Assembly (NCBI GenBank): GCA_034659915.1
Contig: JAYEID010000013.1
Span: forward strand, 74,917-138,916
DNA: 64,000 nt
Source: Patescibacteria group bacterium
GTDB taxonomy: Bacteria; Patescibacteriota; WWE3; JAUXAW01; JAYEID01
Direction: 5' to 3'
Below are positions 13,432 to 45,216 of the stretch, in pieces. Every line of letters begins with the position of its first letter. Positions within the stretch are counted from its first letter, which is position 1. The notes below the pieces were generated by a model, which was given only the letters and a program-made list of their open reading frames with translations, made no database searches and was not told where the DNA came from. Position numbers and translations under genes: made by a program.

Positions 13432-14297
13432 CGCAAAGGTATTACCTTTGATAGAGCTTGTTTCATAGGGTTTTTGATTTTTTTATGAAAAGAAAAACTG
13501 TTTTGGCAGTTGGTGGTATTTATCATATTTTCAATCGTGGGATTGACAAACGTGATATTTTTCTTGATCCAAGTTATTATTCCCGTTTTGTTTCAACTTT
13601 AGAGCATTCTTTAAAGTATAATTATCCTTATAGTTTACTGAAACGCCGGTTGAGAGAAGCTAAATCTTCGGAGGATAGAAAGAATATACTTTTGCAGCTG
13701 GAGACGAAGCGTGTAGAACCCCCGGTGGAAGTACTTTCCTTTTGTTTAATGCCCAATCATTTTCATCTAACTTTAAAACAACTTGTCGAAGACGGTATTA
13801 CTGAGCTTATACGTAGAATTTGCACAGTGTATACAATGTATTTTAATGTGCGGCAAGAGAGAAGAGGAACTCTTTTTGGTGGGGTATTTCGATCAGTTCT
13901 GGTGGAAACTGAAGAACAGCTGATCCACCTTTCTCGTTATCAGCACTTGAACCCCCTCAAGGCCGGAATAACTGAGATATCGAAGTTGGGAGATTATCCC
14001 TGGTCAAGTCTCGCCACTTATTTGGGTAGGGATGATATTCCTTTTGTTAATAGTAGGCCGGTCATGTCTCATTTTAAAGATGCGGAAGGGTATTTAAGGT
14101 TTCTGGAAGCCGAAATTGACGAGTTCGAGCCTCTGCGTTTGGAGGGTATTGCGATAGATGATGACTTCGGTTGGTTCGCCTGTTTTAGGGATTATGAGGA
14201 AGAACGTAAAGAGGCTCTCCGAAAGAGATATATGGAATTGTTGTAATGAAGGCGCTCGCAAAGGTATTACCTTTGATAGCTTTTACCTTTGATAGCT
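13432..14297 (+). mobile_element. IS200/IS605-family-like element: Y1 (HUH) transposase flanked by 25-bp direct repeats
   Basis: Identical CTCGCAAAGGTATTACCTTTGATAG at 13432-13456 and 14255-14279, each containing the palindrome CAAAGGTA-T-TACCTTTG; partial third copy TACCTTTGATAGC at 14284-14296. Confidence 0.65.
13485..14246 (+). CDS. tnpA: IS200/IS605-type (RAYT-like) HUH tyrosine transposase
   Basis: GGIYHIFNRG, HUH motif in LMPNHFHLTL, catalytic Tyr region ICTVYTMYFN, RRGTLFGG block; 254 aa from ATG 13485, longer than the roughly 140-aa canonical IS200 TnpA. Confidence 0.7.
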   Translation: MKRKTVLAVGGIYHIFNRGIDKRDIFLDPSYYSRFVSTLEHSLKYNYPYSLLKRRLREAKSSEDRKNILLQLETKRVEPPVEVLSFCLMPNHFHLTLKQLVEDGITELIRRICTVYTMYFNVRQERRGTLFGGVFRSVLVETEEQLIHLSRYQHLNPLKAGITEISKLGDYPWSSLATYLGRDDIPFVNSRPVMSHFKDAEGYLRFLEAEIDEFEPLRLEGIAIDDDFGWFACFRDYEEERKEALRKRYMELL

Positions 14298-14349: not shown

Positions 14350-17300
14350 ATGGTTAACCCTGTCCGTGATTCTAGTTCAATTGAAAAAATTTCCCAGTGG
14401 ATTGATATTTTTCTTCTTTTTGTGTTGGTTATTGCCAACTTGTTATTTCCCCTCTTTGGTCTTTCTGCGCATCTTGTAAGTTTGGTCCGGTTGTTGTTTT
14501 TGCTTTCCTTAGTTCTATTTTTTATATTTGTACGGTTGCCGCTTCTTTTCGTTGAATCGGTTGTGGGTATGCTTCGTTCCCACAAAGATAGAAAGAAGAT
14601 TTGGAGGAGTAGAAAAAATTTTCTTATTAAAAACCTTGTTTTTATTTTGGTTTTTCTTTTTGTGTTGGATTCAGTGGGTGCAAATTCTCTCCACGGCGTA
14701 ATTGGTAGAGAGTTGTTAGGGAGGAAAGGTGATCGTGGTGGAGCAGCTGATAATGGAGGGGAAGCCTACGGGTTGGTAAGGTCCAGCGAAAAAGAAATGT
14801 TTGTTCTGCGGGCAAAGCGTAAAGACTTTAAGTCTGAAGAGGACGTTACCTTTAAGGTAAGTTTTACCGATGCTTTGCCCTCCGCACCGGAAGAAAATGA
14901 GGCGTCAGGTTCTTCCTCCCAGCCCTCCTCGGCAACAACCTCTGCCACTCCCGAAACAGATTCTCCCTCTTCTGTAGATCAATCTGGTTCGGAAGAACCA
15001 ACCACCCAAGATTCTACTCCGGAGGGTACAGAAAGTGCTACTCCGGAGGCAACAATAAGCGCCCAGCCTAGTAATCAGGGGTTGTTGGGAAAAGTATTAG
15101 CGCTTTTGGAAAAATATAATATTTTTGGTTCTGTTAAAGCTCAAAGCAAAGAACCGGATATTGATGTGAAAATTTTTGATGTGGAAGGTGAAGAGACTCA
15201 CTTTCCTATTTCTGTTGAGGCTGATGAATCAGGTAACTTTGAGATAGAGGTAAGTAAGGGTAGAGCGTTTAGACCCGGGAAGTATGAGCTTAAAGTTACC
15301 TTGGTAGATCCGGAAAGTGGTGAAGAGCTTGATTCTATAGAACAAGATTTTACCTGGGGTGTTTTGGCTGTTAATACCAACAAGTCCATTTACCTGCCCC
15401 GGGAAAAAGCAAAATTGCAGATGGCTGTTTTGGATGAAGAAGGGATGATGGAATGTAACGCTAAGCTGCGCTTGGAAATCCAAAATCCGAAATCCGAAAT
15501 TCAAAACCTCTCGACGGAAGAGGGAAGCATTACCGTGAACCCTGAATGCAAGTTGCATGACTTTACTCTGGTGCCGGATTACGAGGCAGAATACCAAGTT
15601 GCCGATTCTGGTGTTTATGAGATGAAACTAACTGCGGAAACAGAAAACGGCACTTATACCATTACCGATTCTTTTGAAGTGCGCAACGAAGTCCCTTTTG
15701 ATGTGGAGAGGGAAACAGCAACCCGTATTTATCCTCCCGAGTCTTACCCCGTTACTTTTTCTATTAAGGTTAACCAAGATTTTACCGGCGTAATTGAGGA
15801 GCGTGTTCCTGCAAGTTTTGAGGTGGAATGTCCCCCTCTTTTTGATGTGGATTCGGGAACTCGTAGCAACAGTTGCCAGATCAAGGAGAAGGACGGCGTC
15901 AAAACAATATCTTGGTCTGTAAGTTGGGCAGAAGGGCAAAGGACAACCTTGTACTATCGTTTCAAGACACCTCTCATATCGCCGCAATTTTACCTTCTGG
16001 GACCTTTAACCTTCCGTAGCCTTGGCGAAGGAGGTCCTTCCACTACTGTTTTTGAAAAAAGCGAGGATGAGCTTGCACCGACGAGCTTCGAAGAAGCGAG
16101 GAGGTGGCAGCTGGCTATTGACGATACGGAAGGCGCCAACAGCCCAAGCAGCGCAGCTGAAGATACATCTGTAGGTGGTTATTCTTGGTCGGGATATACC
16201 AATGTTTATTCTAGTAATGATTCCTATGCTGAGGTTACTTTGGGTAAAGGATATATAAGTTATTATATTAAAGCTACCGGCTTCGGTTTTTCCCTTTCTA
16301 ATTGCGAGTCCATTGATGGGATTTATGTAGAGGTGGAGCGTAAATCTAACGATGCGGCTGATATGGAAGATAATTCAGTACGCCTGGTTAACGGTAGTGG
16401 TACTATTGTTGGCGATGACAAAGCAATAGCTGGTGATTGGCCAACTTCGGATACTTACCAAGGTTACGGTGGTTCTACCGATACGTGGAACGCCAGCTTG
16501 ACTTGTAGTGATGTTACTAATTCTAATTTTGGAGTTGTCTTTTCAGCGCAGAACACTGTATCTACTAAACCACGCGATATTACTGCCTCCGTTGACCACA
16601 TTCGGGTGACCGTTTATTATACTGCTGCCCCAGCTCTTGAACAGAGCCATTACCGTTGGCGCGACGACAGCTACGGTTTAAACACTGACAACGGTTGGCA
16701 GGCAAATGAAGATAACGAGTACAATGGCTTGCCGACAAATACTACCGCCCGTTTACGAATGGAAATTGACAATACCGGTGACGCGGAGGCGAGCAGTTAT
16801 CAGTACCAACTGGAATATGCTGCCCAAAGTGGGGACACTTGCGGCGGCGAAAGTTACACCGCCGTACCGGTTACTGCTTCCACAGAACCTTTTGAGATGG
16901 TTACTTCTAGCCAATACACGGACGGTGACGCTATTACTTCGGGATTTCTGACAGGTTCCGGCACTTGGGCTGATGGTGAGGGTGTGGCAGACCCCTCTAA
17001 TAAAACAGCAAGCCATAGCTTAGCTTATGGTGACTACACAGAATTTGAATATGCAATTCAGGCAACTAGTGATGCAGGCAGTGGACAGACCTACTGTTTC
17101 CGGTTAACAAATGATGGCTCGATTGAGAATTTTACTTATACTAGATACGCTGAAGCGACCATTCAAGGAGTTAGCGGTTCTTTGGGCAAATCTGCAGACG
17201 GATGGGCGGGGGCAATTCCAGTTTATATGGATGTTATTGGTTATGATTCCAGTTATTACGCCCGGGCTAAAGTGGATACGCCTGCTGCGGAAACCTACTA

Positions 17301-19977
17301 CTTTGATATGACCTGGGATAGCGGCAACAGCCGTTTTGAAGGGACAATTTATCCAGGCTCTTATTATTGCAACGGTTGTGCTGATCCAAATACCGGAACT
17401 TTTACGGTTACTGTTCAGATCGATGACGATTCCGGGTTTGGGTCAATTAATGACTCAGACAGTACGGGTAGTTTTGATACTTATATTACCCGCCGGAAAA
17501 GTTCTTTGGACACCTCTGAAAACTATACCGATATCAAACCGGTTTGGAACACCGACCATTGGGATATTGAGGTGGCTGACTTTGCCCTTTATTGCTCTTC
17601 CAGCCAAACCAATGCGGTTATTGCCGTCCCTTTTCATCCCACTACAGCTAGTATTTCTAACATTGCTGTTAGCTATGATGGTACAGCTGTGTCCCAGGGT
17701 AGTGCGGAATCAACCACTGACGCTTGGTGGTGGGACAGCGATTACCACACCTTGTTTTTAATGTTTGGTTCCTGCAGCACGACCATTGTGGATGTGGACA
17801 TTAGCTTTGATTCGGATACGGATCTTTGGGCAACGCGGTTCGACCGGGTGCAAACAGCTGACATGGGCAACCGCGAATTTTATAACGGTCTTTTTATTGG
17901 TAACCAATACTGGACAACCAGCGTGTATGGCGGCGGTCACGAAGGCGCCGGTGAGCAGGCGGAATCGCGGGCAAAACCCAGCGGGGGAGATGAGTTAACT
18001 GTTGATTGTATGGAACGTGTGGGTGTTTGGGCTGACGATGACGGGGACCCCAACACCATCGATGACCTGAACTGCGACGACTCCGGTTATTATGAATGTA
18101 ACGTTAAGTGGGCGCAGGACGAGTGGGATGATTGGCCCCTTTCGGAAGATAACGATTCGATTGTGGTGGAAACCAACGAGGACCAGACCGCAAGCACCGG
18201 TTGGCGGCAGTATTTGGATAATTCTATTAGTGTTGAACGGATCCTAACTTTTTATTCCGGCAAAATATATATTGAAAACAATTACACTATAACCAATAAC
18301 GATTCCAGTGCACATGATCTCGACCTTGTTCATGAAAGAGAACAATGGCTTGCTGGAGACTGCGCTATAAACGATAGAGGTCGTTATTATAGTGATACTT
18401 CGGATCGAACTATGGACACGAGGGTAGATATGTCTACGTTTTCTAATCCTTGGCTGACGAGTTACGACAATTACGACACCGGTTATTATGCAAGCATGGG
18501 ATTTATTTTTGAGGAAGGTGCGGAAGCGGATTACGGTATTTTTACTGACCATGCCTTTATTACTAACACTTCGGCTGAGTGGCCGGTGGTAATTGGTTCA
18601 GAAGGGCACACTGAGGCAGCTAATACCGGTTTTGAATTAAGTAACAATTCTGTTGCGGCAGGGAACAGTGTGGTTTTAAATTATTGGCAAACCCTGTATA
18701 TAGGCAGTTCTTGGGATGATGTTGCGTCTGCCTTGGATGATGCTTGTGCAGAGCTTAATGATGCTAACACCGCACCCAACAGCCCCACTTCTCTGACGCA
18801 AAAGAAGACCGACGACACAGTTCTTTCCACGGGCGACTGGACCAACGAATCTTCGGTAAAATTCACGGCAACTGTGGATGACCCCGACGATTCGGACACA
18901 CTCTACCTCTGTGTAGAAAAAGACCCCACCGGCACTGCTTTTTCTGATACCGAAGATCAGTGCGGGGAGGGGGTTTCCTACTCCGGAACAGCGGTGGAAG
19001 CAACTGTTACTATTTCTTCGCAGACCGACGATACTGAGTATCACTGGCAGGCACGGGTTAAGGACGAAGCGGGAGAATATTCATCCTGGGTTTCTTACGG
19101 GGGGAACGCGGATCCTAGTGATACAGATTACGCTATTGACACCACAGCCCCCACCGGAGGGACAGTTTACGACGGAACGGAGGCGGGGGTGGATAAGGAT
19201 TTTAACGATGAATCTCTTTCCCAGCTTTCTGCCAACTGGAGCGGGTTTGATGCTAGTGTATCCGGTTTGGATTATTACGAATATTCAATTGGTACTACCC
19301 AAGGAGGAATCGATGTTGTGGGCTGGACCAATAACGGCACATCAACTTCGGTAACTGAACAAGATTTAACTTTGCAAACCTCACAACCTTATTACTTTAA
19401 TGTGCGGGCAGTGGATAATGCAGGCAGTACCCAGTCTCCCGCAATTTCCTCCGACGGCCAGCTGGTGAGTCCCAGTATTTCTTTTAGCGTTAGCCCTTCT
19501 ACAGTTTCCTTTGATGCTTTGAACGCTTCCAACAGTTATACCGATACGGAAACCGTTACTTTGGAAACTTCCACCAACGCCTATAATGGTTATGTTGTTC
19601 GTGGTTTTGCCACCGATTATTTGCGTTCCGCTTCCGGCAACGAGACAGTTCCCGATTTTGACGGGGGAACTTACGAGGAGCCGGACGGCTGGCTTACTAG
19701 TGACCGCGGGTTTGGTTACCATTCTTCGGATGAATCTATTCAAGGAAGTAATATTTTTAATAGCGACCCTTGCCCCGGTGGCAACAGCCCGCCCTGTTAT
19801 GCGCCTTTTTCCCAAACGGCTCCCGGTGATATTGTTGCCGACCACACCGCCAATGTTACCGGCAGTCCTATTTCCAGCGAACAGTTTACGCTTACCTATA
19901 AGGTGAAAACCGACAGTATCCAGGCTTCGTCAACTTACATTACAACTATTATTTACACTATAACTGCTCAGTATTAA
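14350..19977 (+). CDS. giant (1875 aa) membrane-anchored Ser/Thr/Asp-rich cell-surface protein
   Basis: Several N-terminal TM helices, a Ser/Thr/Pro/Glu-rich linker (aa 180-240) and a long beta-rich, low-Cys extracellular region. The last roughly 160 aa (SISFSVSPSTVSFDA...SSTYITTIIYTITAQY) are homologous to the C-terminus of the 21149-22186 protein. Confidence 0.7.
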   Translation: MVNPVRDSSSIEKISQWIDIFLLFVLVIANLLFPLFGLSAHLVSLVRLLFLLSLVLFFIFVRLPLLFVESVVGMLRSHKDRKKIWRSRKNFLIKNLVFILVFLFVLDSVGANSLHGVIGRELLGRKGDRGGAADNGGEAYGLVRSSEKEMFVLRAKRKDFKSEEDVTFKVSFTDALPSAPEENEASGSSSQPSSATTSATPETDSPSSVDQSGSEEPTTQDSTPEGTESATPEATISAQPSNQGLLGKVLALLEKYNIFGSVKAQSKEPDIDVKIFDVEGEETHFPISVEADESGNFEIEVSKGRAFRPGKYELKVTLVDPESGEELDSIEQDFTWGVLAVNTNKSIYLPREKAKLQMAVLDEEGMMECNAKLRLEIQNPKSEIQNLSTEEGSITVNPECKLHDFTLVPDYEAEYQVADSGVYEMKLTAETENGTYTITDSFEVRNEVPFDVERETATRIYPPESYPVTFSIKVNQDFTGVIEERVPASFEVECPPLFDVDSGTRSNSCQIKEKDGVKTISWSVSWAEGQRTTLYYRFKTPLISPQFYLLGPLTFRSLGEGGPSTTVFEKSEDELAPTSFEEARRWQLAIDDTEGANSPSSAAEDTSVGGYSWSGYTNVYSSNDSYAEVTLGKGYISYYIKATGFGFSLSNCESIDGIYVEVERKSNDAADMEDNSVRLVNGSGTIVGDDKAIAGDWPTSDTYQGYGGSTDTWNASLTCSDVTNSNFGVVFSAQNTVSTKPRDITASVDHIRVTVYYTAAPALEQSHYRWRDDSYGLNTDNGWQANEDNEYNGLPTNTTARLRMEIDNTGDAEASSYQYQLEYAAQSGDTCGGESYTAVPVTASTEPFEMVTSSQYTDGDAITSGFLTGSGTWADGEGVADPSNKTASHSLAYGDYTEFEYAIQATSDAGSGQTYCFRLTNDGSIENFTYTRYAEATIQGVSGSLGKSADGWAGAIPVYMDVIGYDSSYYARAKVDTPAAETYYFDMTWDSGNSRFEGTIYPGSYYCNGCADPNTGTFTVTVQIDDDSGFGSINDSDSTGSFDTYITRRKSSLDTSENYTDIKPVWNTDHWDIEVADFALYCSSSQTNAVIAVPFHPTTASISNIAVSYDGTAVSQGSAESTTDAWWWDSDYHTLFLMFGSCSTTIVDVDISFDSDTDLWATRFDRVQTADMGNREFYNGLFIGNQYWTTSVYGGGHEGAGEQAESRAKPSGGDELTVDCMERVGVWADDDGDPNTIDDLNCDDSGYYECNVKWAQDEWDDWPLSEDNDSIVVETNEDQTASTGWRQYLDNSISVERILTFYSGKIYIENNYTITNNDSSAHDLDLVHEREQWLAGDCAINDRGRYYSDTSDRTMDTRVDMSTFSNPWLTSYDNYDTGYYASMGFIFEEGAEADYGIFTDHAFITNTSAEWPVVIGSEGHTEAANTGFELSNNSVAAGNSVVLNYWQTLYIGSSWDDVASALDDACAELNDANTAPNSPTSLTQKKTDDTVLSTGDWTNESSVKFTATVDDPDDSDTLYLCVEKDPTGTAFSDTEDQCGEGVSYSGTAVEATVTISSQTDDTEYHWQARVKDEAGEYSSWVSYGGNADPSDTDYAIDTTAPTGGTVYDGTEAGVDKDFNDESLSQLSANWSGFDASVSGLDYYEYSIGTTQGGIDVVGWTNNGTSTSVTEQDLTLQTSQPYYFNVRAVDNAGSTQSPAISSDGQLVSPSISFSVSPSTVSFDALNASNSYTDTETVTLETSTNAYNGYVVRGFATDYLRSASGNETVPDFDGGTYEEPDGWLTSDRGFGYHSSDESIQGSNIFNSDPCPGGNSPPCYAPFSQTAPGDIVADHTANVTGSPISSEQFTLTYKVKTDSIQASSTYITTIIYTITAQY

Positions 19978-19994
19978 AATAGTGCCAAATTAAA

Positions 19995-21095
19995 ATGAAA
20001 AATTTGCTCATTTCCAAAAATAAAAACAAAGCTAAAAAGTTAAAGAGATTAGGTATTTGCGCTGGGTTTTTGTTAGTTTTGGTAGTTTTCTTTTTTTCGG
20101 GTTCCGTTTTGCAGGTGGGGGCGGCTGATGGTGCAGAGGAAACAACTGCTTCTGCGGGGGCTTCGGGAAATATGCCTCTTATGCAGTTAGAAAGTGCTGA
20201 GCCGGAAAAAGCAGCTTTGGGTGTTTCCCCGGTAATTATTGAACTTATTTTGGAACGGGGTCGAAGCACAGAAAAGAAAATAACTGTTTTTAACATAACC
20301 AACTTCCCCCTACCTGTTAAGGGAAACACGGAGAGCTTTTTTGTGTTGGAAGATGTGGAACCGGGTGCCGAAGAAATTTTTGATGTTTCTTCTTGGGTAA
20401 GTATTGAACCCGCAGATTTCATTCTCCAACCCCGTGAGCACAAAGAGGTTAAAATATCAATTGATGTTCCCCCGGAAGCCGAGCCGGGAGGGCATTATGC
20501 TTCTATTTATTTTCAACCGCTGATTCCGGTGGAAGTTCTTTCCCCGCAGACCGCTTTTCTGACTGCGCGGGTAGGTACTTTAGGGTTCTTTGTGGTTCAA
20601 GGTGAAATTGTGGAGAAAGCGGAGCTGGGTGAATTGGAGGTAAGAACGCTTCAGCAGTTTGGACCTGTAGATTTTAAGTTCCCGATTAGAAATGCGGGAA
20701 ATGTGCATCTTTTGCCTGCGGGGGAAGTGATAATAACTGGTTTTTTGGGGAATGAAAAAGAAAAACTAGAGATATCTCCCAGCGCAATTTTGCCGCAGAC
20801 AACCAAGGAAATAACTGCTCAGTGGGATAAGAAATATCTTTTTGGTAAGTTTTCTGTAGAGGTAAATATTTCTTACGGGAGCGAGAATAAAAAATTGGTG
20901 GCCGGACCGGTAGATTTTTGGGTTGTCCCTTGGCTCTCACTCTTAATTGGGGGCAGCTTGTTGACAGCTGTCTTGGTTTTCTGCATAATGTTTAGGAGAC
21001 GGGTGGGTTTGGCGCTGACTGCGCTTTTCAACCCGGAAAAACTTAGTGAAAAGGAACGGAGGGGAATTAACCTTCTCCCGCGTAAGGATAATTAA
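19995..21095 (+). CDS. membrane-anchored surface protein, paralogue A (possibly DUF916/DUF3324-like)
   Basis: Signal/TM at N-terminus, blocks VSPVIIEL, VSSWVSIEP, EPGGHYASIYFQP, RNAGNVHLLPAGEV, C-terminal TM (WLSLLIGGSLLTAVLVFCIMF) followed by RRR; paralogous to 22389-23318. Confidence 0.6.
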   Translation: MKNLLISKNKNKAKKLKRLGICAGFLLVLVVFFFSGSVLQVGAADGAEETTASAGASGNMPLMQLESAEPEKAALGVSPVIIELILERGRSTEKKITVFNITNFPLPVKGNTESFFVLEDVEPGAEEIFDVSSWVSIEPADFILQPREHKEVKISIDVPPEAEPGGHYASIYFQPLIPVEVLSPQTAFLTARVGTLGFFVVQGEIVEKAELGELEVRTLQQFGPVDFKFPIRNAGNVHLLPAGEVIITGFLGNEKEKLEISPSAILPQTTKEITAQWDKKYLFGKFSVEVNISYGSENKKLVAGPVDFWVVPWLSLLIGGSLLTAVLVFCIMFRRRVGLALTALFNPEKLSEKERRGINLLPRKDN

Positions 21096-21148
21096 TTTTA
21101 GAAATTACCCAATTTTTGAAAAGGGGGTGAAACAGAATAAGTAACAAT

Positions 21149-22186
21149 ATGCAATTTGCACGCAAATTTAAGAAACTCTTGCCTATTTTTATACTAGGAG
21201 GATTATTAGCGTGGATGAGAGTAAGCACGGTTCATGCGGCAACGCTGACCGGAGGTTCGGTAAGCTTGAGCGATTCCCGCCCGGATCAAACTAGCGTGGA
21301 ATATGATTCCGAGTGGAGTAATGTAACCCAATCAAACATTAAATGTATTAAGATCCAGTTTAATACTGCTGCTGACGGAAGTGGGAGTGTTCCTTTGACT
21401 TCTACTGGTGGTACTGTGGATACCACTAATACGGATTATGTTGACGTAAGTACGTGGACCACTGATTTCACAACTAACGGTACGGTTACAATAACAGACT
21501 CAACGGGTGCCGCACCGACCAGTTCCTCTAACCTGACAATTGCTTTGGACGGAATTACCAACGGTTCCACTGCGGATACCGGTTATTATTATATCCTTAA
21601 CACCTATGACAATACGGATTGTTCCACGAGTCCTGTGGACGAAGGTACAGTAACCTTTATCTATACCGAGGGGCAGTCTGTATCTATGACTGTGGACCCG
21701 TCCATTAGTTTCTCCCTTGCTTCTGTGGGGTCGGGTGTATTAGTGAACGGGGCAACTACTACTGAGGCTAGCACTACAACTACCATTCCTTTGGGAACGG
21801 TTACAGATACCACCAATGGAATTACAGCGCACGACCTTACGGTAAGCACCAATGCGGAAAACGGTTACACGGTTTACGCCCGCTATACCGGTCAGCTGAC
21901 TTACAGCACGGCTACAATTGACGATCATACGGGAGATCATACTACGCCTACGGAAATGTCTGTGGGGACTGAGGCGTTTGGTTACACTACCGAAGATACT
22001 GACCTTTCTCAGTTTCAGCCAAACAAGTGGGCTGGGTTTACCAGTACTAATGCTTCAGTGGCCACCAATACGACGGCGGCTTCCAGTGAAACAACCCGTA
22101 TCGGTTACCAAGCGGGAATTAGCAGCACAACGGAGGCGGGGACTTACACAACTACTGTTATCTTGACTTGCACGCCCACCTACTAA
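21149..22186 (+). CDS. secreted Thr-rich beta-strand protein sharing the giant protein's C-terminal domain (SCPU/WxL-like fold guess)
   Basis: Signal peptide MQFARKFKKLLPIFILGGLLAWMRVSTVHA; residues about 185-345 (PSISFSLASVG...NAENGYTVYARYTGQL...AGTYTTTVILTCTPTY) align block-by-block with the giant protein's C-terminus. Confidence 0.6.
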   Translation: MQFARKFKKLLPIFILGGLLAWMRVSTVHAATLTGGSVSLSDSRPDQTSVEYDSEWSNVTQSNIKCIKIQFNTAADGSGSVPLTSTGGTVDTTNTDYVDVSTWTTDFTTNGTVTITDSTGAAPTSSSNLTIALDGITNGSTADTGYYYILNTYDNTDCSTSPVDEGTVTFIYTEGQSVSMTVDPSISFSLASVGSGVLVNGATTTEASTTTTIPLGTVTDTTNGITAHDLTVSTNAENGYTVYARYTGQLTYSTATIDDHTGDHTTPTEMSVGTEAFGYTTEDTDLSQFQPNKWAGFTSTNASVATNTTAASSETTRIGYQAGISSTTEAGTYTTTVILTCTPTY

Positions 22187-22388
22187 AAACGCTCGTTGGA
22201 GAGTTTTTAGAGGTGGCGGCAAGTTGGGGGGTGGGGGCTTTGTTGTTTATTTGAATTGCCGGTAGGCACCAAAGCGGCGCCCCACAAGCAGGCTTGTGAC
22301 TTCCTGCGAAGGGCGGGGGTGTTTTAGAGGCACCCCTTTGTTCCTTGCCTTGAATAATAAAGCTTGAATTAATTTTTTGATTTGTGTT

Positions 22389-23318
22389 ATGAAACTTAAA
22401 CTGGTTACAATTGTAATTTTTTCTTTCTTCTTGTTTTTCCCTTTCCAAAGAGCGCGGGCGCAGGAAATGGTTACTCTTAGTGTTTCGCCGCCGGTTTTTG
22501 AGCTTACAGCTAATCCGGGGGATACGCTCAAGAATGTGATTCGGGTGAGTAACCCCCACGAGGAGCCGCTTAAAGTTTCGGTGGATACCCGCAATTTTGT
22601 GGCGGTGGGTGAGGTTGGCTCGGTGGGGCTTACGGAGGAAGAAACGCCCTATTCTTTAGCTTCCTGGATAAGTGTAACCCCTACTCAGGTTGAAATCCCC
22701 GGCGAATCCAGCTGGTATTTTAATGTTGAAACAAATGTTCCCTTGAACGCAGAACCCGGCGGTCATTTTGGTTCCGTGGTTTTTAAAACAGGCGGCGGCG
22801 CTGTCCAGCAGACCGGTGCTGCAGTTACTCAGGAGTTGGGTTCTTTGTTTTTGCTGAGGGTTTCGGGAAAGGTAACTGAAGACGGTCGGGTGGAAAGCTT
22901 TTCAGCAGAGAAAAAGTTTTGGGAATACGGTCCTATCCGGTTTGATCTGCGGGTGGAGAACAACGGCAATGTGCATATCAAACCGCAGGGGAAAATAGCA
23001 ATTACTAACATGTTAGGAAAAGAGGTGGCTGAGGTGGATGTTAAGCCGCAAAATGTTTTACCTGATGCGGTCCGCAAGTTTTCACCAACCTGGGAAAAAG
23101 AAATTCTTTTTGGAAAATACACAGCAACCGCATCTCTGGTTTACGGCAGTGATAGCGAGGTTTTAAATGCAACTACGAGTTTCTATGCTTTCCCCTACAA
23201 AGTAGGGGGTGCGGTTTTGGCTGGCCTAATTGTTATTGGCTTTTTGCTCTACCGTGGTCGAAGAAGAATAGCCTTAGCCCTACGGATACTGTTTGGGAAA
23301 CATGAAGACAAGGCCTAA
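22389..23318 (+). CDS. membrane-anchored surface protein, paralogue B
   Basis: Blocks VSPPVFELTANPGD, LASWISVTP, EPGGHFGSVVFKT, ENNGNVHIKPQGKI, C-terminal TM then RGRRR; ATG 22389 (ORF track opens at TTG 22377). Confidence 0.6.
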   Translation: MKLKLVTIVIFSFFLFFPFQRARAQEMVTLSVSPPVFELTANPGDTLKNVIRVSNPHEEPLKVSVDTRNFVAVGEVGSVGLTEEETPYSLASWISVTPTQVEIPGESSWYFNVETNVPLNAEPGGHFGSVVFKTGGGAVQQTGAAVTQELGSLFLLRVSGKVTEDGRVESFSAEKKFWEYGPIRFDLRVENNGNVHIKPQGKIAITNMLGKEVAEVDVKPQNVLPDAVRKFSPTWEKEILFGKYTATASLVYGSDSEVLNATTSFYAFPYKVGGAVLAGLIVIGFLLYRGRRRIALALRILFGKHEDKA

Positions 23319-23333
23319 TATGAAAAAAAGATT

Positions 23334-24392
23334 ATGGAAGAACTTTATAGCTTACAGAGAATTTCTCCCTCCTTCTTAGGTACAACTAAGATTGTTCTCT
23401 TTAATATCCTCTTTGTTTTTTTGTTCTTTTTAATCTCTCTTGCTTCTCCAAAACTTGTCTGTGCAGGAACAGAATTGAATGTTACTATGCAGGTTCACGA
23501 TACAACCTTTATTGTTACAGGCAGGACTAGTCCTAATGCTAAGGTAACAGTGCTGGAAGACAATTCTGTAATTGGTACTACCCTTGCGGGCGGTGATGGT
23601 AGCTTTTCCAAAGAATTTCCGGCGCAGGATACTGGCGTTCATAACTACGGTTTTTATTCTACTGATAGCGAAGGTAGAGATACCTCCACTATTAATTACT
23701 CGGTTTCTTTGTTTTCTCATACGGTGACCACACTTTCTAATCTAATCTTGCCCCCCACCTATGAACTTAGCGCTACAGAAATTACTGCCGACGAAGACCT
23801 TCTGGTGGAAGGTTCGGCAGTGCCCAGTTCCCAAGTTGTTTTGTATTTTTCCAAGGCTGGAAGTTCGGAAATTTCCTCGCATACTGTGAAGGCTGGGAGT
23901 ACTGGAAGGTGGGAATATTCTCTGGGTTTGGATTCTTTGGGCGAAGGAACATACGAAATTTATGGTCAAGTAACAACTGTTGATGGTTATCAAAGCGATG
24001 CGGGCAGCGTGCTTGGTTTCGAAGTTACGGCTCCTCCCGAAGAGGAGGAGGAGGAAGAAGAGCTAGTTTCTCCGCCTGTCTCGGTTGAGGAAGAAGTAGC
24101 GCCATCTCCCACTTTAGTTGAGGAAGAAGAGGAGGAAGGTCCAAAGCTTCCTGATTTTATGAGTGTTTTTGATCCAGATGGAGACGGCAGGATTAGCAAA
24201 AGCGAAGTTTTTGATGCAGTAAAGTCTTGGGTTCACAGTTGGCGAGATTATTTGTCTGATTTAGTTGCTGATGAACAATTGCAAGAGCCTCCGTTGGAGA
24301 AGAGAACGTGTGATTTGAATAATGATGGAAAATGTAACTTGCGTGACTTTTCTATACTACTGTACTATATAGAAAGAGAGGAGGGTGGGTAA
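23334..24392 (+). CDS. secreted protein with Ig-like region, poly-Glu linkers and C-terminal EF-hand/dockerin-like Ca-binding pair
   Basis: N-terminal hydrophobic signal; EEEEEEEE and EEEEEEG acidic tracts; the C-terminal loops DPDGDGRISKSE (canonical DxDxDGxIxxxE) and DLNNDGKCNLRD, each followed by a helix-forming segment, are spaced as in the two segments of a dockerin. Confidence 0.6.
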   Translation: MEELYSLQRISPSFLGTTKIVLFNILFVFLFFLISLASPKLVCAGTELNVTMQVHDTTFIVTGRTSPNAKVTVLEDNSVIGTTLAGGDGSFSKEFPAQDTGVHNYGFYSTDSEGRDTSTINYSVSLFSHTVTTLSNLILPPTYELSATEITADEDLLVEGSAVPSSQVVLYFSKAGSSEISSHTVKAGSTGRWEYSLGLDSLGEGTYEIYGQVTTVDGYQSDAGSVLGFEVTAPPEEEEEEEELVSPPVSVEEEVAPSPTLVEEEEEEGPKLPDFMSVFDPDGDGRISKSEVFDAVKSWVHSWRDYLSDLVADEQLQEPPLEKRTCDLNNDGKCNLRDFSILLYYIEREEGG

Positions 24393-24408
24393 TACTGCCA
24401 GATTCATT

Positions 24409-25452
24409 ATGGAAAAGAAAGATTCACAAACACAACTAACCGTTACGCTTGTATTAGTTGGTTTTTTCAAAGTAATACTTTTGGGTATAGTTTCTTGGTT
24501 GTTGTTGCATTTCTTTGCTTTGGTGGGGTTTTTTGTTGCCTTGTCATTGCCTTTGTGGTGGTTGTTCTTCCCACGCCGTATCCCTTGTATTGGCTGTCAG
24601 ACCAGAGAAGAAGGTGAGTATTGTCCTCTTTGCGGTAAGGAGGTGCGGGAGGGTTCTCCACGTTCGTTTCGGAGTATGGCTGCCCATATGGGTATTTTCC
24701 TCCTCTTATTTCTTGTTTCCCTTGGTGTTATTTATGCTGAACGAGAGATATTGGAAGGGTTGGATATTTCCTTAACGCCAAAGACAGCAACTTTTGAGAT
24801 CCCTCCCCGCGCGCAGTACCGTTTGGGAGAGATTTTTCCAATGAGGATTACACTTACAGGTATTAAACGTTCTATCAATGCAGTTCAGGCTGATTTTAGC
24901 TTTGACCCCCGCCGGTTGGAGCTAGTTGAAATTTCTACTAGGGAATCTTTTGCCTCTGTTTTTATTCAGAAGGAAATTGATAATAAGACAGGTTATGGTC
25001 GTTTAGCTGGGGGTGTTCCCAGTCCGGGCTTTTCTCAGGAAAGAGGTGTTTTTGGTACTGTTTATTTTCGTGGCAAGACTCCCGGCTTGGCTGATGTTGA
25101 GTTTTTACCTTCTTCTATGATTTTAGCTAATGACGGGCGGGGTACTAATGTTTTAAAAGGGTTGGCATCTTCCCATTACCTTGTCCTTCCTGAAGAAGTT
25201 TTGGATACAGAACGTGAACTTCAAGAATCGGCACTGATCCTCGAAGTTTTGGGTACTGAGGAGGAACGTAAAGAACAGATGCTCTTTTTTGAGCCGGGCG
25301 AAAAGGTTTTGGGAGGGGATGTGGAAGAAGATCAGATTACGCCGAGCCGGACATTTGGTTTGGGACGGAGCTTGCTTAGGGTTTTGAATAGGTTTAATAG
25401 ACTTGTTATTAATTTTTGGCGCGAAATGTTTGCCTTCGTATTTTCTAGTTAG
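24409..25452 (+). CDS. polytopic membrane protein with cytoplasmic zinc ribbon and extracellular cohesin-like domain
   Basis: Two TM helices, CIGCQTREEGEYCPLCGK zinc ribbon, a third TM, then INAVQADFSFDPRRLELVEI...GVFGTVYFRGKTPGLADVEFLPSSMILANDGRGTNVL, which matches the cohesin beta-sandwich pattern. Start at ATG 24409 or GTG 24385. Confidence 0.55.
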   Translation: MEKKDSQTQLTVTLVLVGFFKVILLGIVSWLLLHFFALVGFFVALSLPLWWLFFPRRIPCIGCQTREEGEYCPLCGKEVREGSPRSFRSMAAHMGIFLLLFLVSLGVIYAEREILEGLDISLTPKTATFEIPPRAQYRLGEIFPMRITLTGIKRSINAVQADFSFDPRRLELVEISTRESFASVFIQKEIDNKTGYGRLAGGVPSPGFSQERGVFGTVYFRGKTPGLADVEFLPSSMILANDGRGTNVLKGLASSHYLVLPEEVLDTERELQESALILEVLGTEEERKEQMLFFEPGEKVLGGDVEEDQITPSRTFGLGRSLLRVLNRFNRLVINFWREMFAFVFSS

Positions 25453-25486: not shown

Positions 25487-26659
25487 TTAAGATTGGTCTT
25501 CGGGTTTTGGTTGAGGTTCTTTTGTTGCTTTTGGTTTCTTACTACTGGAAAGTAACTTGCCTGTTGCAAAGCCTAAGACAAATCCGAGAATCAAAGCGCC
25601 AACACCAACTCCAATAAGGAGGATTTTATTTACACCTTCAGTTATTGTAGCTAAGAAACCCGCTGCTTCTTTCGTAGCAATATCTCTTGCGTCTATTCCT
25701 GAATTTGTGTCTCTTTGTGTAGTGTCCAATTCAGTTGGAAGCTCATCTTCCTCAAAATACTCTCGCGCCTCAGAAAGAGGTAGTATTGAAGTTTCTAGAT
25801 CATAAGCTAAGACACCCTCATCTTTTTGTGAGCCATAATCTATTTCCAAATAATATGTGTCTGACTTTTCAGCCAAGAAGGGAGCAGTTACAACCGCACC
25901 TTGGTTGGGCCACCCATGTCTTTCTAATTCCTTACGAGAAGAGTCGTAAAAAACTATAGCATCAAAGCTTGCGTTGCTTGGTGGTGTTATTGTTACAACT
26001 AGAACTTGTCCTCTGTTTACATCCACACTGTAAAAGTCAGCATCATCTGTACCACTCCCACGTCCTACTAGGTATCCTGTGTAGGTACCTTCTGTTAGGG
26101 GCACAGCTTTTTCAAAAGAATTACCAGCGTCAGATTCTGCTCCTCCGTCAAAATAGCTAACCTTTTCTATTTCTAAGCTGTAAGAGGAAAGATCTCCGTC
26201 GCGGCTTACTTCAATTACAATATAGTATTCATAGATAGTTTTTTCTGTTCCGGGAAGCCACGAGACTTCAAGATCACTAGGTTCACTTGCGTGCTGCGAT
26301 TCTCGTGCAAGCTCACTTCGGTCTGCATCATAGAGTATTAATGAGGCACCAGTATCTCCTTCAAAATTCCCAGTTGCAGTCACTTGTTCTCCCGGGCGGA
26401 AGCCAGAAACTTTAAAATATTTCTTTTCGCCTGAGGGAACACTTGCGCCAGATTCATAGGAACCTGTATCAAGTTCTTCTGCATTTTCAAAACTATCGCC
26501 TCCGCTTATTACTGTTGTCTGTTCAGCATTAGTTGTGGTTGAAAATCTACTAGTATCTTCTTGGGCTAAAGCGGGATTGAAAACTGAATATAAAGGGAGG
26601 AGAAGGAGAGGGCTCAATAGGGTTAAAATAATCTTTTGGCAGGTTTTTGCTCTATTCAT
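25487..26659 (-). CDS. C-terminally membrane-anchored protein with two pre-peptidase C-terminal (PPC)-type domains
   Basis: Signal peptide; two tandem copies of the pattern (D/K)xY(F/S)xVxxxxGQxLxVT...xILYDxxxxELxR...xTYYLEI; C-terminal TM ILLIGVGVGALILGFVLGF plus lysine-rich tail. Confidence 0.55.
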   Translation of the reverse strand: MNRAKTCQKIILTLLSPLLLLPLYSVFNPALAQEDTSRFSTTTNAEQTTVISGGDSFENAEELDTGSYESGASVPSGEKKYFKVSGFRPGEQVTATGNFEGDTGASLILYDADRSELARESQHASEPSDLEVSWLPGTEKTIYEYYIVIEVSRDGDLSSYSLEIEKVSYFDGGAESDAGNSFEKAVPLTEGTYTGYLVGRGSGTDDADFYSVDVNRGQVLVVTITPPSNASFDAIVFYDSSRKELERHGWPNQGAVVTAPFLAEKSDTYYLEIDYGSQKDEGVLAYDLETSILPLSEAREYFEEDELPTELDTTQRDTNSGIDARDIATKEAAGFLATITEGVNKILLIGVGVGALILGFVLGFATGKLLSSSKKPKATKEPQPKPEDQS

Positions 26660-44266: not shown

Positions 44267-44746
44267 ATGATAGCAATGAAAGAAAAGCAGAAGAAAATTT
44301 TGACCCCGGGAGGGTACAAAAAACTGAAAGAAGAGTACGAAGAACTAACTCAGGAGAAAAGAAAAGAAATAGCTGAGAAAATTCGCGAAGCTCGCGAGCA
44401 AGGGGATCTTTCGGAAAACGCTGCATATAAGGCAGCTAAGGAAGAGCAAGTGTTTGTAGAGCGGCGGATTGATGAACTTGAGACTGTTTTGCGGCAGGCC
44501 AAAGTTGTTGAGCGTAGTAATGATGCTTGTGGTAAAGTCGACCTAGGGTGCAAAGTGCAAGTTTATTTGGAAGGACAGAATCATGAGTTTTTTATTGTGG
44601 GTGCCGAGGAGGCAAACCCAACTGAGGGCAAGATTTCCTATGAGTCGCCCTTGGGGCAAGCGCTAATGGGTAAAGCTCCGGGGGAGCGGGTTGAAGTAGA
44701 AACTCCAGGTGGTAGAATAACTTATATTGTAAAGGGGATTGAATGA
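44267..44746 (+). CDS. greA: transcription elongation factor GreA
   Basis: N-terminal coiled coil with GDLSENAAYKAAKEEQ, C-terminal FKBP-like KISYESPLGQALMGKAPGERVEVETPGG. Confidence 0.85.
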   Translation: MIAMKEKQKKILTPGGYKKLKEEYEELTQEKRKEIAEKIREAREQGDLSENAAYKAAKEEQVFVERRIDELETVLRQAKVVERSNDACGKVDLGCKVQVYLEGQNHEFFIVGAEEANPTEGKISYESPLGQALMGKAPGERVEVETPGGRITYIVKGIE

Positions 44747-45216
44747 TAAATTTAGAAAAAACATACTATTTAACCCCAGAGGGGTTGGAAAAATTTAAGG
44801 AAAAGCTGGAGCATTTGGAAGAAAATGTTATGGATGATGTGCGAAGTGAGTTAAGAGTTGCTCAGGAAGAAGAGCCAGACCCTACCGAAAATCCTGGTCT
44901 TCGAGATGCAATTAGTCGCCAGCAACAAGCGGAGGAAGAAATTGAGGAGCTGAAAAATGTCCTTAATAATTACGAATTAATTGAAGGAGGCTCGGGTGAT
45001 AAGGTTGAACTAGGATCGGTTGTGGAAGTCAAGGTAGATGGGGAGAAGGACAAATTCCAAATTGTTGGTTCGTTGGAAGCAGATCCTGTTAATGGTAAAA
45101 TTTCTTATGAATCTCCAGTGGGGGAAGCACTTTTGGGTGCTAAGCCTGGTGAAGAAGTTGAAGCGGGAGGTTCTATAGTTAGAGGAGCTACTTATAAGGT
45201 TTTATCTGTTAATTAA
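44743..45216 (+). CDS. GreA/GreB-family paralogue (second copy, ATGA overlap)
   Basis: YLTPEGLEKFKEKLEHLEE coiled coil, acidic tip, C-terminal KISYESPVGEALLGAKPGEEVEAGG. Confidence 0.75.
   Translation: MINLEKTYYLTPEGLEKFKEKLEHLEENVMDDVRSELRVAQEEEPDPTENPGLRDAISRQQQAEEEIEELKNVLNNYELIEGGSGDKVELGSVVEVKVDGEKDKFQIVGSLEADPVNGKISYESPVGEALLGAKPGEEVEAGGSIVRGATYKVLSVN

Follow-up and report, generated by a model that had tools for sequence, protein, structure and literature searches.

A conserved gene cassette in Patescibacteria that probably encodes an usher-less, chaperone-assisted pilus with a giant candidate tip adhesin

Organization of the locus

Here, we describe a gene cassette in a 64,000-nucleotide stretch of DNA from a Patescibacteria group bacterium (assembly GCA_034659915.1, contig JAYEID010000013.1, positions 74,917 to 138,916 of the forward strand), a member of the candidate phyla radiation (CPR). 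We refer to this whole stretch as the window, and coordinates are window positions unless another locus is named. Six open reading frames (ORFs) on the + strand at 14350-25452 constitute one cassette, which probably encodes a pilus built by donor-strand exchange with membrane-anchored chaperones and without an usher. The first ORF (14350-19977, + strand) encodes a giant secreted protein of 1875 amino acids (aa), a putative tip adhesin in which a mosaic passenger region is followed by a C-terminal acceptor module. Downstream lie, all on the + strand, anchored paralogue A (19995-21095, 366 aa), the major pilin (21149-22186, 345 aa), anchored paralogue B (22377-23318, 313 aa, likely start at 22389), gene 5 (23334-24392, 352 aa) and gene 6 (24385-25452, 355 aa).

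A C-terminal module shared by the giant protein and the pilin

A first-pass annotation, made from the letters of this DNA, had proposed that the giant and the 345-aa protein share a colinear C-terminal module, and both sequences that it quoted are found where it had placed them. Copy 1 (19471-19974, + strand) covers residues 1708-1875 of the giant, i.e. its extreme C-terminus, which ends in ...IIYTITAQY without a sorting signal, and copy 2 (21698-22183, + strand) covers residues 184-345 of the pilin, ending in ...VILTCTPTY. These are the only two copies in the window. Composition-adjusted pairwise BLASTP aligned the two proteins colinearly (28% identity over 223 columns, 23% gaps), but not significantly (E 0.26), and the claim therefore had to be tested with profiles. 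For this, homologue sets of 120 sequences for the 345-aa protein and of ~70 for the last 276 residues of the giant were used. Profile-profile alignment with hhalign, comparing 121 pilin-family with 67 giant-family C-termini, was significant (99.5% probability, E 2.6e-23, 118 columns, 33% identity) and stayed so when borderline sequences were dropped from the giant set and the clear homologues kept (99.4%, E 1.4e-21). Furthermore, a hidden Markov model (HMM) built from giant-family C-termini alone finds the 345-aa protein of the window with E 2.4e-12. Likewise, a full-length pilin HMM matches ~50 giant-family proteins, nearly always via its last ~150 positions, indicating that the shared part is the C-terminal domain alone. 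The colinear homology, extending over ~165 residues, is confirmed by these profile-profile and HMM results.

Both C-termini are rich in Thr and Ser, and the first-pass annotation had itself pointed to compositional bias as a possible source of the resemblance. Composition-preserving shuffles (2000 in each direction) exclude this. Against the giant-family HMM, the pilin module reaches 46.0 bits (shuffle maximum, 11.0), and against the pilin-family HMM the giant module reaches 34.9 bits (shuffle maximum, 16.6), placing the cross-family scores ~17-20 standard deviations (SD) above the shuffles. In the joint alignment nine columns are invariant (S/T-T-N-x-x-x-G-Y, P, G-Y, F, Y) and the terminal Tyr is nearly invariant.

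The SCPU (Csu) or WxL-type identity first suggested for the module was not confirmed. A Pfam scan of both modules and the whole pilin at E <= 10 returned nothing relevant, with neither WxL nor SCPU among the matches, and the 70 pilin homologues scanned with Pfam gave no WxL or SCPU match. Alignment by hhalign to seven WxL domains from plasmid loci, a thin profile, reached a probability of 1.2%, with the terminal strand alone aligned (Y-x-T-T-V-x-(L/Y)-T-x-T-P in the module, Y-x-x-T-L-x-W-x-L-x-x-P in WxL). No Trp-x-Leu motif occurs in the joint module alignment, in which GY.V and V.(L/Y)T stand in equivalent places by eye only, and homology of the module to the WxL domain is unproven. In contrast to these families, the NCBIfam model NF058581 (CPR_Pam_pilin_C, "Pam pilus system pilin subunit") matches both copies end to end (pilin module, E 6.4e-9, profile positions 2-148 of 148; giant module, E 2.6e-5, positions 3-148 of 148), as well as 63 of 70 pilin homologues (best E 3.6e-13). 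On this homology we consider the module very probably a Pam-type acceptor domain, most likely an incomplete immunoglobulin (Ig)-like domain that would be completed by a beta-strand donated from another protein. A donor-strand-type domain, as first suggested, is therefore supported by homology to the Pam pilin C-terminal domain, whereas the family names SCPU and WxL are not.

The Pam filaments of the CPR bacterium Ca. Mycosynbacter amalyticus were resolved by cryo-electron microscopy (cryo-EM), which identified the pilins PamA and PamB. These pilins have two domains, an N-terminal domain (NTD) sandwich and a truncated Ig C-terminal domain (CTD), and the linker between the two is the donated strand. 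PamC and PamD are PapD/FimC-like chaperones that, unlike the classical ones, keep a C-terminal transmembrane (TM) helix, PamT is a CTD-only tip pilin, and PamR is a membrane-anchored terminator with an N-terminal strand (bioRxiv 10.64898/2026.03.03.709456).

Within the giant-family module there is an insertion, C-P-G-G-x-x-P-P-C (nt 19790-19820, residues 1808-1816 of the giant), whose conserved pair of Cys has no counterpart in the pilin module, and the NTD of the pilin contains the invariant residues Cys66 and Cys158. Both pairs are likely disulfides, as reported for PamA/B.

The pilin and its linker

An AlphaFold2 model of the 345-aa pilin, built on a 70-sequence alignment (mean predicted local distance difference test score, pLDDT, 93.5), comprises a signal helix, a beta-sandwich at residues ~35-171 and a second beta domain at residues 186-343, the signal peptide covering residues 1-30 with a VHA/A site. 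The two domains are separated by a linker of residues 172-185 (21662-21703, + strand; GQSVSMTVDPS, consensus G-Q-A-V-S-L-T-V-D-P), which has no secondary structure and a pLDDT of ~70 in the AlphaFold2 monomer. The linker is among the best-conserved parts of the family, with columns Q176, V178, S179, V182 and D183 conserved to at least 90%. Being conserved and yet modelled with low confidence is what would be expected of a strand whose partner is another subunit, and the linker is our candidate donor strand. The model bears out the expectation of two beta domains with an unstructured stretch between them, and the 'small secreted protein' of the first-pass annotation would be better described as a two-domain major pilin. 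Of the features of donor-strand assembly, the conserved low-pLDDT linker is present, and strand exchange itself would follow from homology. Sequence searches of the PDB with the pilin, both single and as a profile, found nothing relevant.

The membrane-anchored paralogues

The two proteins encoded on either side of the pilin gene are true paralogues, as first proposed (BLASTP E 1e-40, 29% identity over 283 aa). In paralogue A, a signal peptide is followed by two Ig-like domains and, at the C-terminus, a TM helix. It is a putative membrane-anchored chaperone similar in type to PamC/PamD and WxLIP, and the chaperone-family HMM matches it with E 1e-82. Paralogue B is WxLIP/PapD-like, with two domains and a TM helix at residues 274-293, and its AlphaFold2 model (pLDDT 88.8) consists of two beta-sandwich domains and the C-terminal TM helix. 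With this model, the top Foldseek matches are 9i1y_A and 9i25_C, both WxLIP of E. faecium (E ~9e-12), the 9i25 entry being described as 'bound to long WxL', and the next ones are the chaperones CfaA, CsuC, FimC and Caf1M (E ~1e-10), as well as DraB.

Sequence profiles point in the same direction. The Pfam model WxLIP_PGBD (DUF916) matches 60 of 70 members of the paralogue family (best E 7.7e-8; paralogue B of the window, E 0.002), the DUF3324 model finds no match in the family, and hhalign of the paralogue family to five Firmicute WxLIPs, taken from plasmids, gives 97.1% probability (E 4.9e-11) over 255 columns that include the TM helix. Judged from these sequence comparisons, the paralogues are full-length relatives of WxLIP (DUF916-DUF3324-TM type), and the homology is unambiguous. 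Two parts of the paralogue B model have low confidence, a conserved hairpin at residues ~65-90 and a loop that precedes the last strand of domain 1. For WxLIP, the prediction is that a disordered hairpin turns into a strand and thereby completes the WxL sandwich (PMC10599100). By homology, the paralogues would be expected to bind the module, in agreement with the first suggestion that they 'bind or present' it, but we would recast this as chaperoning before donor-strand exchange.

The giant protein

The giant contains a canonical signal peptide starting at Met74 (nt 14569), preceded by a hydrophobic extension of ~73 residues. This extension also occurs in a homologue (P0314) and may thus be genuine, not the product of a wrongly called start. 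The signal-peptide sequence is MLRSHKDRKKIWRSRKNFLIKNLVFILVFLFVLDSVGA/N, and extension and signal peptide together lie within window positions 14350-14680. Over its length, Pfam gives weak matches only. The junction before the module reads GQLVSPSISF (giant-family consensus G-Q-x-V-A-P-S-L-S-F), and comparison of the alignments reveals that the SLTVD core of the pilin linker is absent from the giant-family junction, where an FnIII/Ig-like domain runs straight into the first strand of the module. From its sequence, the giant appears to be able to accept a strand and not to donate one. A protein with an acceptor module and without the linker core could only be the first, distal subunit, and on balance we take the giant to be the tip subunit.

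When 120 giant representatives were aligned to the giant of the window, all 120 covered residues ~1500-1875, about half covered residues 300-600 and only 2 covered residues 1000-1400. By this picture, the giants are constant in the C-terminal part that would serve for attachment and variable, with a mosaic make-up, in the passenger region. A Pfam scan of the passenger regions of five other giants found no annotated domains, and the giant of one related locus (L001) has LamG (lectin-like) and DUF2341 in this region.

Distribution and conservation of the cassette

A search with a module profile against a library of 1.84 billion cluster representatives yielded 1940 matching representatives at E <= 1e-3, 257 of them at E <= 1e-30. 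At least 120 of the best 150 matches are giants of 1000-3674 aa, always with the module reaching to the last residue. Gene order was counted in 13 related CPR loci with enough upstream sequence. In all 13, the core order is the same: a giant with the C-terminal module, chaperone A, the pilin, chaperone B and a gene 5 encoding two Ig-like domains. Gene 6 was detectable in 10 of the 13. Saccharibacteria, WWE3, Woesebacteria and other Patescibacteria are represented among the loci, and the host of the window is likewise a CPR bacterium, with 100% identity to the proteins U9M98_02295 and U9M98_02300 of a Patescibacteria metagenome-assembled genome.

Some loci deviate in detail. Three contigs with the cassette (L008, L009 and L021) are found in metagenome-assembled genomes labelled 'Pseudomonadales' and 'Clostridia', which is probably an error of binning or of the taxonomy label and not an occurrence outside the CPR. 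There are two tandem pilin genes in L015 (7866-10233), the giant of L020 is encoded on the opposite strand, and so is a third chaperone paralogue that is present in L011 (15522-16565). A sortase gene lies ~9 kb downstream of the cassette in L001 (20861-21077).

Genes 5 and 6, the hairpin and the flanking genes

Gene 5 encodes a protein with a signal peptide, an N-terminal strand GTELNVTMQV, Big_6 and Big_13 Ig-like domains, an acidic spacer and an EF-hand/dockerin-like C-terminus (Pfam: Big_6, 6e-8; EF-hand, 1.5e-7; Dockerin_1, 3e-4), and its position is kept in 17 loci. Across loci, the mature N-terminus after the signal-peptidase site reads Q/E-S-L-T-V-S-L-x-V-G, resembling the pilin linker, and direct reading of the sequences showed the dockerin-like C-terminus in the window and in L001 and L002. 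By analogy to PamR, gene 5 would encode a putative terminator and base subunit of the pilus. The protein encoded by gene 6 has N-terminal TM segments, a CxxC...CxxC motif and a cohesin-like domain (weak Pfam Cohesin match, E 0.011), its orthologue in L001 also has a Cohesin match, and the gene is conserved in position. Genes 5 and 6 are fused in one ORF in L022 (1220-2791) and partly in L009, and the L022 fusion provides Rosetta-stone support for a contact between the two proteins. It is conceivable, if rather uncertain, that gene 6 supplies the membrane anchor for the dockerin of gene 5. A cohesin-dockerin pair is unusual in a CPR pilus cassette.

In the 190-nt gap 3' of the pilin gene lies a terminator-like hairpin (22315-22337, + strand) with a 10-bp stem GGGGGTG.../...CACCCCT and a T-rich tail, which is the best-scoring + strand terminator-like site within 13.4-26.8 kb. 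Hairpin attenuators of this kind occur after papA and fimA. Here, too, the hairpin may act as an attenuator, so that more pilin would be made than products of the downstream genes and the pilin:chaperone ratio would be high.

Directly upstream of the cassette, an ORF of 262 aa (13458-14246) has no Pfam match at 1e-5. It contains the motif MPNHFHLTL, which resembles the HUH motif of IS200/RAYT-type tyrosine transposases. At the other end, a convergent gene on the - strand (25487-26659) adjoins the cassette but lies outside its conserved part. Its product, a secreted protein of 390 aa, has weak PPC (pre-peptidase C-terminal) repeats and a TM helix at the C-terminus. Nine ORFs checked outside the cassette include two greA, a lysS/asnS-like gene, serS and secA, and none of the nine is an ATP synthase gene, the reported neighbourhood of pam operons. 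The tandem greA/greB-family genes (159 and 157 aa) are adjacent at 44267-45216.

Comparison with known surface and fibre systems

The cassette is most readily compared with the Pam pilus. The pilin CTD matches the Pam pilin profile over its full length, the predicted layout of the window pilin is the same (NTD sandwich, linker, CTD), and both systems have two Sec-exported chaperone-like proteins with C-terminal TM helices, no usher and a CPR host. In contrast, the modules of the window score below the curated cutoff of the profile, as a divergent subfamily would, and in place of the CTD-only PamT there is a giant of 1000-3700 aa with a variable passenger region. With only two copies of the module, the window contains no CTD-only, PamT-like ORF. 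Whereas PamR has two FnIII domains, a C-terminal TM helix and an N-terminal strand, gene 5 combines two Ig domains and an N-terminal strand with a dockerin-like end and has no TM helix, the membrane segment being supplied by the separate cohesin-like gene 6. The cassette furthermore differs in having one pilin gene instead of PamA/B/E and in the absence of an ATP synthase gene from the nine neighbouring ORFs that were checked. The central biology, the Pam pilus itself, is already described, and the proposed giant tip adhesin is a variant not found in the main text of the preprint, which mentions no adhesin, no giant module-bearing protein and no WxL (bioRxiv 10.64898/2026.03.03.709456).

A second relationship is to the WxL clusters of Firmicutes, which comprise a small WxL protein, a large WxL protein, a WxLIP of the DUF916-DUF3324-TM type and a small LPXTG protein (PMC9772566, PMC10599100; PDB 9i1y, 9i25). 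The anchored paralogues are colinear, full-length homologues of WxLIP. In both systems, two secreted proteins, one small and one very large, have a C-terminal module of ~150-170 aa in common that ends in a conserved hydrophobic/aromatic strand, and the WxL sandwich is predicted to be completed by a strand that WxLIP inserts. The canonical WxL cluster of the E. mundtii conjugative plasmid pPe10301 (L005, 5529-12427), with a small LPXTG protein, a 287-aa WxL protein, a WxLIP and a protein of 1507 aa whose C-terminus is a WxL domain, is comparable in layout to the CPR cassette. Unlike these clusters, the window has no WxL Pfam match, no Trp-x-Leu motifs and no LPXTG protein, and WxL clusters are read as peptidoglycan-bound display complexes and not as pili. 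Among the papers searched, none connects WxL clusters with donor-strand systems or Pam pili.

With the chaperone-usher pili (Pap/Fim, CFA/I, Csu/SCPU) the cassette shares the PapD-like two-domain chaperone fold and, judged by homology, the incomplete Ig-like subunit domain, and their two-part tip adhesins FimH and PapG also carry a C-terminal pilin domain. At the sequence level, the cassette proteins have no match to SCPU or fimbrial Pfam families, and there is no usher among their Pfam matches and no candidate pore protein in the conserved cassette. Here, the chaperones are membrane-anchored, an outer membrane and an usher are missing, the donor strand would be an internal linker instead of an N-terminal extension, and the subunit has an extra N-terminal domain.

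Finally, we considered the TLP-1a/b fibrils (CryoSeek; PDB 9ikk; PMC11494351), in which a single-domain protomer receives an N-terminal donor strand from protomer n+4. They are attributed to a Flavobacteriales-like protein without sequence-level similarity to the pilin, and we rejected TLP-1 as a relative, regarding it as a structural analogue of Flavobacteriales type.

Discussion

We propose, with fair confidence, that the cassette at 14350-25452 encodes an usher-less, chaperone-assisted donor-strand pilus with the giant as its variable tip adhesin. In such an assembly, all parts would be exported by Sec, and the two anchored WxLIP/PapD-like paralogues would, by donor-strand complementation, cap the module that is still open in subunits just exported. 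In donor-strand exchange, the pilin linker (GQSVSMTVDP) would then displace the chaperone strand from the module of the subunit added before, so that the fibre would grow at its base. As the first and distal subunit, the giant would correspond to FimH or PapG, serving as a tip adhesin whose passenger region varies, and the linker-like N-terminal strand of gene 5 would end the fibre, with its dockerin-like end docking on the cohesin-like membrane protein encoded by gene 6. The homology of the module, the homology and fold of the chaperones, the domain architecture of the pilin and the conserved gene order are the observations on which this proposal builds, while polymerisation, the position of the giant at the tip, any specificity of the chaperones for individual subunits and the anchoring by genes 5 and 6 would be its consequences.

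Several observations weigh against this proposal. WxLIP, the closest solved relatives of the paralogues, are currently read as surface-display factors and not as pilus chaperones, and we infer donor-strand exchange at this locus from homology alone. NF058581 scores 36.1 bits for the pilin module, 29.6 bits for the full-length protein and 24.3 bits for the giant module, below the curated cutoff of 55, and we therefore file the window proteins as a divergent relative or variant and not as strict members of NF058581. Foldseek-type fold searches with the pilin model returned generic Ig-like matches alone, from a library that does not contain PamA or PamB. The long hydrophobic N-terminus of the giant might be an uncleaved anchor, which would be ill-suited to a location at the tip, the N-terminal strand of gene 5 could be nothing more than strand A of the first Ig domain of this protein, and the Dockerin match of gene 5 and the Cohesin match of gene 6 fall below Pfam thresholds.

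The only serious rival is a surface display of the WxL type without a filament, in which the module would be a non-covalent anchoring tag and paralogue A would permanently hold the giant, and paralogue B the 345-aa protein, on the cell surface by strand insertion, as has been proposed for the WxL/WxLIP clusters of Firmicutes. The full-length relationship of the paralogues to WxLIP, the existence of a solved complex of WxLIP with long WxL (9i25) and a cluster architecture that fits the definition of WxL clusters (PMC10599100, PMC9772566) would all be accounted for, and so would the fact that each of the two module proteins has a paralogue to go with it, encoded by the neighbouring gene. However, the module matches the profile of the Pam pilin CTD and no WxL model, and the homologous Pam pilins form filaments in cryo-EM. 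Pure display would also leave the conserved unstructured inter-domain linker unexplained, and the hairpin 3' of the pilin gene suggests that the pilin is made in excess. Taken together, we consider display without a filament unlikely, though deserving attention.

A sortase-assembled (LPXTG) pilus or a classical chaperone-usher pilus of the SCPU/Csu type is very improbable. A sortase would be consistent with the gene ~9 kb downstream of the cassette in L001, but a regular-expression scan found no LPXTG in the six cassette proteins, and both module proteins end at the terminal Tyr. Likewise, a chaperone-usher pilus is contradicted by the missing usher, by the absence of an SCPU Pfam match and by a candidate donor strand that is an internal linker and not an N-terminal extension. 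To our knowledge, CPR cells have no outer membrane, which also speaks against it. A chance resemblance of two Thr/Ser-rich, beta-rich tails, with which the pairwise BLASTP result was compatible, is refuted by the profile-profile E-value, the scores far above the shuffles, the nine invariant columns and the end-to-end matches of both modules to NF058581.

A broader reading can be put forward tentatively, and we hold it with clearly less confidence than the pilus itself. Pam-type pili and WxL/WxLIP clusters may represent one ancient family of usher-less donor-strand systems with membrane-anchored chaperones, in which the giants, numbering hundreds, would be interchangeable, fast-evolving tip adhesins that decide to which host an episymbiotic CPR bacterium can attach, and in which the base of the fibre would be held by a cohesin-dockerin pair and not by a TM helix or a sortase. 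In that case, WxL clusters would also assemble by strand exchange, possibly into fibres. The locus links the Pam pili of CPR bacteria to the WxL/WxLIP virulence clusters of enterococci, listeriae and lactobacilli, two fields without mutual citation in the papers searched, and this link would suggest a donor-strand mechanism for the latter.

The practical value of these findings is moderate, everything beyond homology being prediction, and what they mainly add is the recognition of giants as candidate tip adhesins that form a large class, together with the connection between Pam and WxL systems. CPR bacteria, or Patescibacteria, account for a very large share of bacterial diversity and live mostly attached to host cells. 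If the giants are tip adhesins, they would constitute a candidate set of host-specificity determinants that can be searched for by sequence, tied to a pilus whose core was first seen by cryo-EM in 2026.

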